This document shows, piece by piece, positions 5,392 to 63,800 of a stretch of 64,000 nucleotides of DNA. A program made the translations under genes and the position numbers. This DNA comes from Octopus sinensis (lineage: Eukaryota): NCBI RefSeq assembly GCF_006345805.1, contig NC_043001.1:9052001-9116000 (forward strand), read 5' to 3'. The notes below the pieces were generated by a model. The model worked only from the letters and a program-made list of their open reading frames with translations, ran no database searches and was not told the origin of the DNA. Within the stretch, counting starts at the first letter, position 1. The number at the start of each line of letters is the position of its first letter.

Positions 5392-6153
5392 GGCAGCGAG
5401 CTGGCAGAAACGTTAGCACGCCGGGTGAAATTCTTAGCGGTATTTCGTCTGTCACTACGTTCTGAGTTCAAATTCCACCGAGGTCGACATTGCCTTTCAT
5501 CTTTTCGGAGTCGATTAAATAAGTAACAGTTACGTACTGGAGTCGATGTAATCGATTTAATTCGTTTGTCTGTCCTTGTTTGTCCCCTATATGTTTAGCC
5601 CCTTGTGGGTAGTAAAGAAATAAATATTTAGTCTGCCGCTACGTTCTGAGTTCAAATTCCACCGAGGTCGACTTTGCCTTTCATCCTTTCGGGGTCGATT
5701 AAATAAGTACCAGTTACGCACTGGAATCAATGTAATCGACTTAATCCGTTTATCTGTCCTTGTTTGTCCCCTCTATGTTTAGCCCCTTGTGGGTAGTAAA
5801 GAAATAAGTATTTAGTCTGCCGCTACGTTTTGAGTTCAAATTCAGCCGAGAGCGACTCTGCCTTTCATCTTTTCGGAATCAATTAAATAAGTACCAGTTA
5901 CGCACTGGGGTCGATATAATCGACTTAATCCGTCTGTCTGTCCTTCCTTGTCTCTTCTGTGTTTAGCCCCTTGTGGCTAGTAAAGAAACAGGTATTTAGT
6001 CTGTCTTTAAGTTCTGAGTTCAAATTCGCCGAGGTCAAATTTACCTTACATCCTTTCGAGATTGATAAATTAAGAACCAGTTGCTTACTGGGGTTGATCT
6101 AATCGACTGGTCCCCTCCCAAAAATGTCGGGTCTTCTGCCTAGAGTAGAAAAG
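5392..6153 (+). mobile_element. SINE family A tetramer (one head, four cores, three internal tail-1 modules, terminal tail-2)
   Basis: About 183-bp unit repeated; degenerate 18-bp TSD AATATTGACATCATTTAA (5374-5391) / AACATTGCTATCATTTAA (6154-6171). Confidence 0.9.
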
Positions 6154-43507: not shown

Positions 43508-44524
43508 GTTTGTGTGTGTGTGCATATGTGTCTGTGTATGTAGTCGATTCTTGCAATTATGTGTATGTAGCTCTGTAACTCTGCATATCAGTGAAGACAG
43601 AAATAAAATTTTCAGTTAAAGCAGGTGGACATATAATTAGTTTGTGAAAATGGGATGGGAAGTCAGTGTAGTATAATAATTAAAGCAATCGTCCGTCTAG
43701 CTTTATTTATTTGGCTCTAATCCATCGCTTCTTTGTTGTTCTTCGTTTTCAATTCTCTCCTGTTTTCTCAAGATACGTTTAATATCGTTTACATTAATCA
43801 CCCTCTGCTCTAGCCACAAAGACTTACACCCAACAAACACAAACATAAGATATTTATATCTGTTTATGTATATGTATATATATATATATATATGTGATGT
43901 TCATATATATATGTATATGTATGGGAGCATATATTACTACATACATATGCATATGCTTATAGTGATAGATCGACAGAGAGGAAAATAGAGATAGACATAC
44001 AGACAGATATATATATGTATATAGAAAAATAGATAGATAGATAGATACATAGATACATAGATACATAGAGAGATACATAGATAATTAGATAGATATTCAA
44101 TAGTTTTTTCTTCGCTGTAAATCTTTTTTATACGCAGAATTGCAATGGTGGGATTTTTTCTTTATTCTGTTCTCTAATCTTTTAGGGGTGTAATCGGCCT
44201 GTTATAAGTGTATATCTAAGCCGTGGTACACCCTTTTCCTCAAACTTTTTACCCTTACGTAACCCTTAAAATAAATTGCATGTCCCAAAGAACCTGCACA
44301 CAATGAATTATACACCACATCTTATAATTTTTCCATCGTATTTCACGTGGTAAATATATATGTATATATATATATATAATATATAATATATATATATATA
44401 TATTATATATATATATATTATATAGCTTGTTTACACTTTTTCGTTATCAGTGAGATTTCGTCACTGGAAAAAGGATATATATTTGCAAAGGAATGCCTAC
44501 TTTTCATCGACAACTCGTGATCTT

Positions 44525-44569
44525 CACACGCTGATGACGGGTCAATAGCCAGAAACTCGAGTCCGTGTG
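44525..44569 (+). ncRNA. Minimal type-I hammerhead ribozyme motif
   Basis: CACACG-CTGATGA-cgggtcaatagcca-GAAAC-TCGA-GTC-CGTGTG: perfect 6-bp stem I, intact core, palindromic stem III ACTCGAGT, GUC site; stem II imperfect. Confidence 0.75.
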
Positions 44570-44718
44570 TATCATAAGTTGAGGACGGGATGGATGGCTT
44601 ATCTTTGCCAATACTGATAGCGCAGTATATATATATATATATTATATATATATATATAAAACATTATTGGTGAATTGAAGAAATGGAGCTGAACGCAGAT
44701 TGAACAGAAATCGTTTTA

Positions 44719-44807
44719 TTTCATTCTACACGTGTTTCGAAAGGCACAAATTACCAAAATCCGATTGAATAATGGGACCATATTGTGTCTTTCTCTTCAG
44801 GAAGAAA
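44719..44807 (-). ncRNA. Type-I hammerhead ribozyme motif with long stem II
   Basis: Minus strand TTTCTTC-CTGAAGA-GAAAGACACAA...TTGTGCCTTTC-GAAAC-ACGT-GTA-GAATGAAA: intact core, 10/11-bp stem II, palindromic ACACGTGT stem III, GUA site. Confidence 0.8.
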
Positions 44808-44941
44808 AAAGGAAATCCGTTGGAAAAACAAAAACAGAACAGAGGCAGAGCAAAAAACAAATCGAACTGTGCTCCTAAGAGCCCATGGCGAATTAATGTA
44901 GTGATTAATCCACTACAAGATTATTCATCTTTCTATTTCAC

Positions 44942-44979
<38 letters not shown>

Positions 44980-44984
44980 TATAT

Positions 44985-45131
44985 ACGACGGGCTTCTTAC
45001 GAAGTCCACTCACAAGTAGTTGGTCAGCTCGTGGCTTTGGTAGAAGACACTTGGACAAAGTGCCACGCAGTGGGACTGAACCCTGAACAGTATGGTTGTG
45101 AAGCAAGCTTCTTACCACGCAGCCACGCCTG
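44985..45131 (-). mobile_element. SINE family B 5' half
   Basis: ACGACGGGCTTCT...CTTACCACGCAGCCACGCC. Confidence 0.75.
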
Positions 45132-59547: not shown

Positions 59548-60827
59548 TGGAATTTTGGGGGAATCGGCCAGTCCATTGGATCGGCCCCAGTACGCAAATG
59601 GTGCTTATTTAATCGACCCTGTAAGGATGAAAGGCAAAGTCGACCTCGGCGGAATTTGAACTGAGAACGTAACGGCAGACGAAATACCTATTTCTTTACT
59701 ACCCACAAGGGGCTAAACACAGAGAGGACAAACAAGGACAGACAAACGGGTAAGTTGATTACGTCGGTCCCAGTGCGTAACTGGTACTTATTTAATCGAC
59801 CCCGAAAGATGAAAGGCAAAGTCGACTCGGCGGAATTTGAAATGAGAACGTAACGACAGACGGAATACCTATTTCTTACTACCCACAAGGGGCTAAACAC
59901 AGAGAGGACAAACAAGGACAGACAAACGGATTAGTTGATTACGTCGGTCCCAGTGCGTAACTGGTACTTATTTAATCGACCCCGAAAGGATGAAAGGCAA
60001 AGTCGACTTCGGCGGAATTTGAAATGAGAACGTAACGACAGACGGAATACCTTTCTTTACTACCCACAAGGGGCTAAACACAGAGAGGACAAACAAGGAC
60101 AGACAAACGGATTAGTTGATTACGTCGGTCCCAGTGCGTAACTGGTACTTATTTAATCGACCCCGAAAGGATGAAAGGCAAGTCGACTTCGGCGGAATTT
60201 GAAATGAGAACGTAACGACAGACGGAATACCTATTTCTTTACTACCACAAGGGGCTAAACACAGAGAGGACAAACAAGGACAGACAAACGGATTAAGTGA
60301 TTACGTCGGTCCAGTGCGTAACTGGTACTTATTTAATCGACCCCGAAAGGATGAAAGGCAAAGTCGACTTCGGCGGAATTTGAAATGAGAACGTAACGAC
60401 AGACGGAATACCTATTTCTTTACTACCCACAAGGGGCTAAACACAGAGAGGACAAACAAGGACAGACAAACGGATAAGTTGATTACGTCGGTCCCAGTGC
60501 GTAACTGGTACTTATTTAATCGACCCCGAAAGGATGAAAGGCAAAGTCGACTTCGGCGGAATTTGAAATGAGAACGTAACGACAGACGGAATACCTATTT
60601 CTTTACTACCCACAAGGGGCTAAACACAGAGAGGACAAACAAGGACAGACAAACGGATTAAGTTGATTACGTCGGTCCCAGTGCGTAACTGGTACTTATT
60701 TAATCGACCCCGAAAGGATGAAAGGCAAAGTCGACCTCGGCGGAATTTGAGCTCAGACCGTAGCAGCAGACGAAATACCGCTAAGCATTTCGCGCGGTGT
60801 GCTAACGATTCTGTCAGCTTGCCACCT
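59548..60827 (-). repeat. SINE family A tandem array: seven cores, six near-identical 180-183 bp units
   Basis: Tail-1 motif TACTACCCACAAGGGG at about 59697, 59877, 60058, 60240, 60421 and 60604; single head at about 60780-60827. Confidence 0.92.
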
Positions 60828-63800
60828 TAAAATATTCTTTTTTATACGAGGTACAGGGCCCGAAATTTTTAGGAAGAGGGCCAGTCGATTAGATCGACCC
60901 CAGTACGCAACTGGTACTTTATTTATCGATCCCGAAACGATAAAAGGCCAAGTCGACCTCGGCGGAATTTGAACTCAAAACCTAAAGACAAACGAAATAC
61001 CACTAATCATTTAACCCAGAGTGCTAACGTTTCTTATTTCTTTACTGCTCACAAGGGGCTAAACATAGAGGGAACTAACAAGGATAGACAAAGAGATTAA
61101 GTCGATTACATTGACCCCAGTGCGTAACTGGTACTTGATTACCGACCCTAAAAGGATGAAAGTAAAAGTTGACCTCAGCGGAATTTCAACTCAGAACATA
61201 ACAGCAGACGAAATACCTATTTCTTTACTACCCACAAGGGGCTAAACACAGAGAGGGCAAACAAGGACAGACAAAAGGATTAAGTCGATTACATCGACTC
61301 CAGTGCGTCACTGGTACTTAATTTATCGAGCCCGAAAGGATGAAAGTCAAAGTCGACCTCGGCGGAATTTCAACTCAGAACGTAAAGACAGACAAAATAC
61401 CTATTTCTTTATTACCCACAAGGGGCTAAACACAGAGGCAACAAACAAGGACAGACATAGGTATTAAGTCGATTATATCGACCCCAGTTCGTAACTGGTA
61501 CTTAATTTATCGACCCCGAAAGGATGAAAGGCAAAGTCGACCTCGGCGGAATTTGAACTCACAACGTAACGCAGACGAAATACCGCTAAGCATTTCGCCC
61601 GACGTACTATCCTTTCTGCAAGTCGTCGCTTTAATAAAAGGAATTGTACGAAACTTTCGCTGTTAATATTTCCATTGAAGAGTCCAGGCTTCATGGCAAA
61701 GAATAGTGTTACTCAAGATTCTTTCATTCTCAGCTGAGTTTAAAGTTTTGTGATGACAATAAATATTAAGTAAGTGGGCGAACAGGCAGAAACGTTAGCA
61801 CGCCAAGCGAAATGCTTAATACTATTTCGTCTGTCTACGTGTTCTGAGCTCAAATTTCGCCGAGGTCGACTTTGCCTTTTATCCTCTCGTGGTCAATAAA
61901 TTAAGTACGAGTTGCGTACTGCTGTCGATCTTCTCGACTGGTTCAATCCTACAAAATTTCGGATCGTGTGACTAGAGTAGAAAAGAAAAAGATACATAAT
62001 AAGTTACCGCATTTGTCTCTGAGCCACTTAAAACAAGAAATTACGTTATAAATTATAGAATGTCTGTTTCTTTATTGCCCACAGGGGCCTAAACATAGAG
62101 GGGGGCAAAAAAGGATAGAGAAAGGGATTGAGTCGATTACATCGTAACTGGTACTTATTTAATCGAACCTGAAATGATGAAAGGTAAAGTGAACCTCGGC
62201 AGAATTTCAACTCAGGACTTAAAGACAGACGAAAAATACCTGTTTCTTTATTACCCTCAAGGAGCTAAATGCAGAAGAGACAAACAAGGACAGACAAAGG
62301 TATTAAGTCGAACACATCGACCCCAGTGCGAACCCGAAAGGATGAAAGGCAAAGTCGACCTCGGCGGAATTTGAACTCAGAACGTAACGGCAGACGAAAT
62401 ACCTATTTCTTTACTACCCCCAAGGGGCTAAACACCGAGAGGACAAGCAAGGACAGACAAACGGATTAAGTCAATTATGTTGACCTCAGTGTGTAACTGG
62501 TACTTATTTAATCAGCTCCGAAAGGATGAAAGGCAAAGTCGACCTCGGCGGAATTTGAACTCAGAACGTAACGGCAGACGAAATACGGCTACGCATTTTG
62601 CCCGGTGTGCTGACGTCTCTGCCAGCTCGCCACCTTAAAATATTCTTTTTTATACGAGGTACAGGGTCCGAAATTTTTAGGAAGAGGGCCAGTCGATTAG
62701 TCGACCCCAGTACGCAACTGGTATTTTATTAATCGATCCCGAAACGATAAAAGGCCAAGTCGACCTCGGCGGAATTTGAACTCAGAATCTAAAGACAAAC
62801 GAAATACCACTAATCATTTCACCCAGGGTGCTAACGTTTCTTATTTCTTTACTGCTCACAAGGGGCTAAACATAGAGGTAACTAACAAGGATAGACAAAG
62901 AGATTAAGTCGATTACATCGACCCCAGTGCGTAACTGGTACTTAATTACCGACCCTAAAAGGATGAAAGTAAAAGTCGACCTCAGCGGAATTTCAAATCA
63001 GAACATAACAGCAGACGAAATACTTATTTCTTTACTACCCACAAGGGGCTAAACACAGAAAGGACAAACAAGGACAGACAAACGGATTAAGTCAATTATG
63101 TCGACCCCAGTGCGTAACTGGTACTTATTTAATCGACCCCGAAAGGATGAAAGGCAAATTCGACCTCGGCGGAATTTGAACTCAGAACGTAAAGACAGAC
63201 AAAATACCGCTAAGCATTTCGCCCGGTGTGCTGAAGTTTCTGCCAGTCGTCGCTTTAATAAAAGAAATTGTACGAAACTTTCGCCGTTAATATTTCTTTT
63301 GAAGAGTCAAGGCTTCACGGCAAAGAATAGTGTTACCTAAGATCCTTTCATTCTCAGCTGAGTCTAAAGTTTTGTGATGACAATAAATATTAAGTAAGTG
63401 GGCGAACAGGCAGAAACGTTAGCACGCCAAGCGAAATGCTTAATACTATTTCGTCTGTCTACGTGTTCTGAGCTCAAATTTCGCCGAGGTCGACTTTGCC
63501 TTTTATCCTCTCGGGGTCGATAAATTAAGTACGCGTTACGTACTGTTGTCGATCTTCTCGACTGGTCCAATCCTACAAAATTTCGGATCGTGTGACTAGA
63601 GTAGAAAAGAAAAAGATACATTATAAATTACCGCATTTGTCTCTGAGCCACTTAAAACAAGAAATTACGTTATAAATTATAGAATGTCTGTTTCTTTATT
63701 GCCCACAGGGGCCTAAACATAGAGGGGGGCAAAAAAGGATAGAGAAAGGGATACAATCGATTACATCGTAACTGGTACTTATTTAATCGAACCTGAAATG

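Follow-up and report, generated by a model that had tools for sequence, protein, structure and literature searches.

How two unrelated hammerhead ribozyme motifs came to lie on opposite strands, 149 nt apart, amid runs of TA dinucleotides is the question raised by a short locus of Octopus sinensis, and with it comes the question of whether the pair does anything where it now stands. The locus belongs to a 64,000-nt stretch of DNA (the window, throughout), which is microsatellite-rich animal sequence without a recognisable gene. An earlier note, made from the letters, took the two motifs for independent termini of Penelope-like elements (PLEs) inserted into one TA microsatellite. The reading put forward here retains the outline of that proposal: quite probably there were two separate repeat insertions into a TA microsatellite, both likely being truncated 3' ends (pseudo-LTR pieces) of unrelated PLE families or of non-autonomous derivatives. 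The features concerned are the following.

44354 to 44424, no strand: impure (TA)n tract forming the left border (TRF, 37.5 copies, 86% matches)
44425 to 44625, plus strand: island 1, 201 nt long, an old and diverged copy of a high-copy repeat that bears a hammerhead
44518 to 44574, plus strand: type I hammerhead 1, with an extended stem I containing an internal loop, CUGAUGA, a 4-bp stem II with an extra C on one side and an extra A on the other, a palindromic stem III and GUC
44626 to 44658, no strand: (TA)n tract between the inserts (TRF, 17 copies)
44659 to 44668, no strand: 10 letters that separate the TA tract from piece H (X10 record 10 and X16 record 14 match only from 44669, positions up to 44668 being masked)
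44669 to 44892, minus strand: piece H, an inverted, 5'-truncated part of a young high-copy element, comprising a U-rich leader, hammerhead 2 and 58 nt downstream
44719 to 44807, minus strand: type I hammerhead 2, whose 7-bp stem I contains a bulged U, with CUGAAGA, G10.1-C11.1, a long stem II, a palindromic stem III and GUA
44893 to 44901, no strand: 9-nt filler at the head-to-head junction, forming a hairpin with the start of piece C
44902 to 44944, plus strand: piece C, a 43-nt segment, likely 3'-terminal, of the element of piece H, in the opposite orientation to H
44945 to 44985, no strand: (TA)n tract forming the right border (TRF), probably the 3' tail of the adjacent SINE
44986 to 45129, minus strand: copy of a tRNA-like SINE with A-box-like and B-box-like strings at its 5' end and 8 further blastn matches in the window

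Two hammerhead motifs between TA tracts

Both motifs carry CUGANGA, GAAA and a NUH triplet in order, with stem I closing both ends. In the plus-strand motif six perfect stem I pairs (44525-44530 with 44564-44569) enclose the core CUGAUGA (44531-44537), GAAA (44552-44555), the palindrome (44555-44562) and GUC, the predicted cut falling after 44563. The minus-strand motif has CUGAAGA at 44800-44794, GAAA at 44738-44735, the palindrome at 44735-44728 and GUA, with the predicted cut after 44727; its stem II (44793-44783 with 44749-44739) is built of 5+5 pairs around a 33-nt loop region, with pair probabilities of 0.88-0.99, and its stem I is better drawn as seven pairs plus one bulged U (44723). 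The earlier note had given the first motif a perfect stem I, a palindrome and a GUC site, and the second a long stem II (here ten pairs), a palindrome and a GUA site; every one of these elements was located, and a descriptor search and folding led back to the same two places. Its view that the motifs are unrelated, yet alike in core and palindromic stem III, also holds, as the two islands share no sequence (best blastn E 0.98). Within the window there is no second copy of either island, nor of the two family motifs that the present copy lacks.

The descriptor demanded the core, a stem I with at least 5 of its 6 pairs, a stem II, and a stem III that is palindromic; it returned two matches in 64 kb, namely the plus and minus motifs, and no match in any of 100 block-wise dinucleotide shuffles, the looser core-only strings in the 64-kb window numbering 12. 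The Infernal/Rfam-type check that had been proposed drew a blank, finding no hammerhead in the window at the gathering score and none in 44300-45100 at E values up to 10. The folding z-scores, -0.5 to -1.4, are weak, and for neither monomer is the active fold the predicted minimum-energy fold. Judged from their letters both motifs are real, and their cleavage is predicted.

What such cleavage would amount to at this locus depends on pairing. The 8-bp palindromes form homoduplexes of -10.7 and -10.3 kcal/mol, and in cofolding the palindrome is used in dimers of motif 2 and not in those of motif 1. A heterodimer of motifs 1 and 2 was considered and ruled out, the heteroduplex reaching -1.2 kcal/mol against about -10.5. 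Each motif stands alone on its own strand with no partner in cis; because the palindromes do not pair with each other and the motifs lie on different strands, a read-through transcript would carry one monomer only. The earlier expectation that a transcript of either strand would contain a potential self-cleavage motif is thus correct as to one motif per strand, but what is carried would be a monomer, from which poor cutting is expected: cleavage at the locus would be weak for motif 2 and weaker still for motif 1. Hammerheads of PLEs are described as lying in the pseudo-LTR, with a palindromic stem III, and as cutting weakly, as dimers (PMC4209133, PMC6765202); that of an anole element cuts only with the element's protein and is dispensable for insertion in vitro (PMC11167929).

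The window holds 48 TA tracts, and a likely source of many of them is the tRNA-like SINE. The SINEs also give the window the look of octopus DNA. All four of the other SINE copies in the window that reach the 3' end adjoin TA runs; besides the one at 44986-45129, copies lie near 2738, 17231, 20839 and 54055. Each motif had been said to be boxed by (TA)n, and TA does stand on both sides of both islands, although the right-hand tract is probably the tail of the neighbouring SINE. In the simplest history, that tail would have expanded and later taken two inserts. Elsewhere in the window a SINE-like unit of 163-184 nt forms tandem arrays of 3-6.6 copies (5440-6108, 59581-60779, 61035-61584 and 62164-62472), and there are 100 N letters, probably one scaffold gap.

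Two abundant repeat families of different age

A 520-nt stretch covering the locus is partly present in 20 of the 24 listed runs, from 9 studies; in 19 runs, from 7 coded organisms, the share of the stretch is 0.33-0.59. Contigs were mapped from four runs (X1, X7, X10 and X16), whose kinds are unrecorded or guessed, the mapping leaving out a feces RNA run (X20, share 0.04) and the runs with a share of 0.00. The contigs on the stretch numbered 4932 in X1, 1144 in X7, 2 in X10 and 54 in X16. Individual low-depth pieces in X1 have depths of 13-71, against a peak of 5.7e5 for island 1 and a level of 1.0-1.5e6 for most of island 2, these being summed contig depths, which are not copy numbers. If single-copy sequence is assumed to have a depth of 40 in X1 or 9 in X7, and overlap of as much as 31-fold is allowed for, rough bounds of about 500-14,000 copies result for family 1 and of 1,000-30,000 for family 2. 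Both islands are dispersed, very abundant repeats, so the single-copy state that the earlier note had named as speaking against its reading is not what is found (9 studies, thousands of contigs). Since no contig spans the whole stretch, it is the window assembly alone that places the islands side by side.

Island 1 is an old member of its family. Per 80-120 letters, pieces of the family show 7-18 differences from the window, and the summed depth climbs to 5.7e5 in X1 and 1.1e5 in X7 over 44551-44586, compared with 3.5e3-3e4 in the left half; as 44617-44668 were masked in the mapping, the right end of the island is not placeable. Motif 1 is damaged at 44548 in stem II and at 44522-44523, a stem I bulge that forms an internal loop of the extended stem I. 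At 44548 the majority letter of the family differs from the window in 96% of the depth in both X1 and X7, at 44522 another letter is found in 99% and 100%, and at 44523 in 97% and 98%. The family majority letter turns the G-G mismatch of 44541 and 44548 into a G-C pair, the third of the four in stem II, and takes the stem II hairpin from -0.3 kcal/mol here to -3.2; the energy of the active fold is -5.6 kcal/mol in the window and -9.7 with the majority letters, a gain of about 4, yet with neither set of letters is this the fold of lowest energy. The present copy of motif 1 accordingly lacks a stable stem II, and the 'intact cores' first ascribed to the pair are intact in their catalytic letters in both but not, in motif 1, in the helix that adjoins them. 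No variation is listed at the C after core 1 or the A before GAAA. Conservation is not tidy throughout, for the deepest X16 contig over motif 1 (depth 130.8 of 176.8) carries a stem I mismatch, 44565 G>A. Motif 1 is an old, decayed copy.

Some smaller observations attach to island 1. An AUG inside core 1 opens 27 codons (44534-44617, plus strand) with the family letter at 44548 and meets a stop in the present copy; in a sister subfamily, visible as a loose end behind 44574, this frame survives through a 3-nt indel. The frame is too short to count as evidence, and an anole PLE likewise has an ORF start within its ribozyme. In the left half a small inverted repeat at 44449-44467 has 5-8 times the depth of 44497-44514, a step that suggests that island 1 is a mosaic or a member of an older subfamily.

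Island 2 (44659-44944, 286 nt) presents a different picture; the island sizes first given as 200-270 bp suit island 1, at 201 nt, and fall short of this one. Piece H has no difference from X10 record 10 over 224 nt and none from X16 record 17 over 111 nt, and its summed depth is about 1.0-1.5e6 in X1 over 44695-44820. In the 434-nt X10 record, C (positions 4-46, one difference) and H (165-388) run in one direction with 118 letters between them, and 24 contigs of X1, 13 of X7 and 2 of X16 continue from 44902 into this part, which is missing from the window. In the sense of the ribozyme, upstream of which 45% of the letters are U, the order of the family is therefore upstream sequence, H, the 118 missing nt and C, and the family sequence extends beyond 44892. 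In the window, by contrast with the record, H and C meet at their 5' ends, and their 3' ends face the TA tracts. Other copies with a joint of inverted H to C exist in X1 (44692>44902 and 44739>44917, one contig each). The junction forms an 8-bp DNA hairpin (z -3.64, with 1 of 200 shuffles as good), in which 44897-44903 is the reverse complement of 44911-44917, and the filler hairpin is likely a product of fold-back synthesis.

Motif 2 shares in this youth. Among the rows listed (40 of 49) no change of at least 5% falls in its core or helices in X1 or X7, the changes common to these runs lying in the loop region (44750, 44759 and 44775) or outside the motif (44809), and no two-sided, compensatory stem change occurs among the same rows. 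Island 2 is one young, internally inverted insert. The convergence that the earlier note read into motifs 150 bp apart is correct as to distance and opposite strands, but it is likely a by-product of the inversion of the ribozyme piece inside this insert, piece C and island 1 both reading on the plus strand.

Origin of the two inserts

Targeting of TA, opposite-strand pairs and cleavage as dimers are already published for PLEs. Thousands of solo, truncated PLE hammerheads were reported in 2014, with opposite-strand pairs 100-700 bp apart in Schistosoma (Cervera and de la Pena 2014, PMC4209133). The motifs of the window resemble these minimal, palindromic hammerheads (see also the review PMC6765202): they are of type I topology with a CUGANGA/GAAA core, stem III is palindromic, the leader is rich in U, and the copies are solo and truncated. 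Leader and stem III also agree with the PLE consensus. In contrast to the published pairs, the opposite-strand neighbours here come from two unrelated families; in motif 2, moreover, stem-loop II measures 55 nt and the core is not followed by an extra base, and in motif 1 stem II is flanked by an extra base at either end. Members of the Hydra clade, including Hydra-1_Obim of Octopus bimaculoides, show a (TA)n preference and a hammerhead within about 100-200 nt of the 3' end (Craig et al. 2021, PMC8557442), a preference that the same source lists for Hydra and Naiad PLEs, Octopus families included, and discusses for Neptune. Extra bases flanking stem II are common in the clade, whose stem III strings are of the kind acac-a-gtgt and actc-g-gagt; the stems given there differ from those of both motifs. 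The two stem III strings of the window had no match each in the text of the supplement to PMC8557442, where line breaks could hide one.

Coding evidence for a parent is slender. Among 300 of the 302 window frames (complex stop-to-stop frames of at least 55 aa) there were 6 weak Pfam matches, none at the curated cut-off, and no reverse transcriptase or endonuclease ORF; pattern scans of viral contigs and prokaryote genomes gave no match. Two metagenome pattern matches were set aside as chance, having no similarity to the window; one of these (L002, 1-2260) looks by eye like a fragment of an intron-containing animal GPCR gene. The search for the parent PLE of each island that the earlier note had called for thus found neither an ORF in the window nor a relative in the collections. 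For family 2, the 30 letters by which the family sequence extends H upstream give, in the ribozyme sense, P-V-L-N-I-H-stop-stop (a post hoc hand translation of six codons on one contig), similar to the P-x-L-N ends of the Nematis and Poseidon proteins (figure S7). This resemblance to the C-terminus of a PLE endonuclease, the only link to a coding parent, lends weak support to the assignment. Independent PLE termini in one TA microsatellite fit what was found in being unrelated, multi-copy, of PLE type and set in TA, the parent ORFs being the part not recovered. Neither family turned up in listings of the literature on octopus and hammerheads or in string searches of two PLE supplements, and both may already be catalogued in Repbase, Dfam or the library of PMC13282606; 31 recently active Penelope-like families are reported for O. 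vulgaris (PMC13282606).

The architecture of island 2 has its closest counterpart in Penelope, where head-to-head inversions with junction palindromes have been read as self-priming (Arkhipova et al. 2013, PMC3846280; PMC8557442). Such inserts (PMC3846280; Frangieh et al. 2024, PMC11167929) share with island 2 the joined 5' ends, the outward 3' ends, the junction hairpin and the one short terminal piece, which measures 43 nt here and may correspond to the optional PLE tail of 30-40 nt; another copy of the family breaks at the same place as piece C. Unlike the Penelope inserts, island 2 holds no long inverted repeat, since H and C do not overlap (118 nt are missing), and no target duplication is readable in TA.

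A mechanism can be proposed on these precedents. The GIY-YIG endonuclease of the element would nick (TA)n, and reverse transcription would start near the RNA's 3' end and stop early, leaving 200-290 nt. In insert 2, a first product of 43 nt would fold back, add 9 letters and then be joined head-to-head to a second product carrying the ribozyme; because this second product is inverted, ribozyme 2 would end up on the minus strand. The ribozymes of the parent elements would act on tandem precursor RNA, cutting it as homodimers by way of the palindromic stem III or with the help of protein. At the present locus both would be passengers, motif 1 old and damaged, motif 2 young and intact with no partner in cis.

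The alternative that survives best concerns island 1, which is likely either the end of a PLE, truncated on its 5' side, or a non-autonomous derivative. Instead, it might come from a non-LTR retrozyme as a solo monomer, island 2 remaining a PLE end; retrozymes of this kind are small circular-RNA elements that are non-coding and contain a type I hammerhead with tertiary stabilisation. Such elements are present in molluscs (Cervera and de la Pena 2020, PMC7229834), and solo monomers are common in retrozyme families (bioRxiv 10.64898/2026.07.22.740005). Island 1 agrees with them in being a short non-coding unit of about 200 nt with a type I hammerhead and no ORF evidence, and its 6-bp stem I, 4-bp stem II and, in the family, extended stem I with an internal loop are near the canonical sizes. 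However, retrozymes come as tandem units, and there is none at the locus, nor a go-back joint in the four runs; one subfamily runs about 380 letters past 44575 (X7 record 20); and the stem II flanked by C...A has a PLE precedent in the hammerhead of PLE-X1_cBra (PMC8557442, file S2). The retrozyme origin is accordingly unlikely, if worth keeping in mind, and the difference from a PLE origin is small, because retrozymes have themselves been argued to be PLE derivatives (bioRxiv 10.64898/2026.07.22.740005).

Very improbable is the view that the motifs are chance strings, or that an error of assembly across TA tracts has made neighbours of them. The silence of Rfam, the weak z-scores and the want of a spanning contig would suit it, but the shuffles yielded no match, the family majority letter repairs exactly the stem II pair that is broken, and the junction structure of island 2 is coherent and recurs in other copies. 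Least credible of all is a two-way cleavage or termination cassette kept by the host for transcripts of either strand, which could point to one motif per strand within 150 nt, intact catalytic letters in both and family RNA apparently from both strands in one run, but which is at odds with the loss in motif 1 of a stem II pair and of two bulge letters that 96-100% of the family keeps, with the lack of a heterodimer or cis partner, with a window in which no gene was found and with inserts of different age, the state of motif 2 needing no selection as it is identical to its young family.

Probable RNA editing of the second family and its possible significance

One further aspect of family 2, as two PLE-derived inserts remain the preferred reading of the locus, concerns changes seen in what is probably its RNA. 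In X16, by guess an RNA run, from organism B, 15 of the 20 island 2 changes listed are below 0.2% in both X1 and X7, and 14 of the latter are of the A>G or T>C type, nine on the ribozyme strand and five on the other among the rows listed. The excess has a binomial p of 0.007, under a generous null and with changes on one contig being non-independent. The clustered A>G and T>C changes lie in 44700-44772; in one loose-end consensus of three contigs, a hand count found 10 of 13 A read as G and no other change in 30 letters. Position 44727, the A of the GUA site, is changed in 15.5% of the depth in X16 (two contigs), compared with 0.01% in X1 and none in X7. Family 2 RNA thus looks like a substrate of ADAR A-to-I-type hyper-editing on both strands, the cleavage-site A included. 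The X16 changes may instead be species variants of organism B, X16 having been compared with the sequence of other runs, but the spectrum of changes points to ADAR.

On the simplest view, double-stranded repeat RNA is being edited as a bystander, since hyper-editing of repeats is reported to be very high in octopus and is known for a lizard Penelope (PMC5625713). A bolder and improbable suggestion is that ADAR editing of the GUA-site A slows self-cleavage and is thereby a brake on how a young, abundant PLE family is processed and spreads in an animal rich in editing. In an engineered hammerhead, inosine at the cleavage-site position made cutting about 30-fold slower, the end point staying similar (PMC3923133), and tertiary-stabilised hammerheads tolerate G17 (PMC3884650). 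A link of this kind was not found in listings of the published literature; if it proved to govern cleavage in vivo, editing of the cleavage-site A would connect host RNA editing to ribozyme-dependent processing of retroelements.

The locus itself is ordinary retroelement debris. What is of modest value in it are two abundant families that bear hammerheads and escape Rfam, one of them young enough for identity between organisms, and an insert that records fold-back and head-to-head joining.
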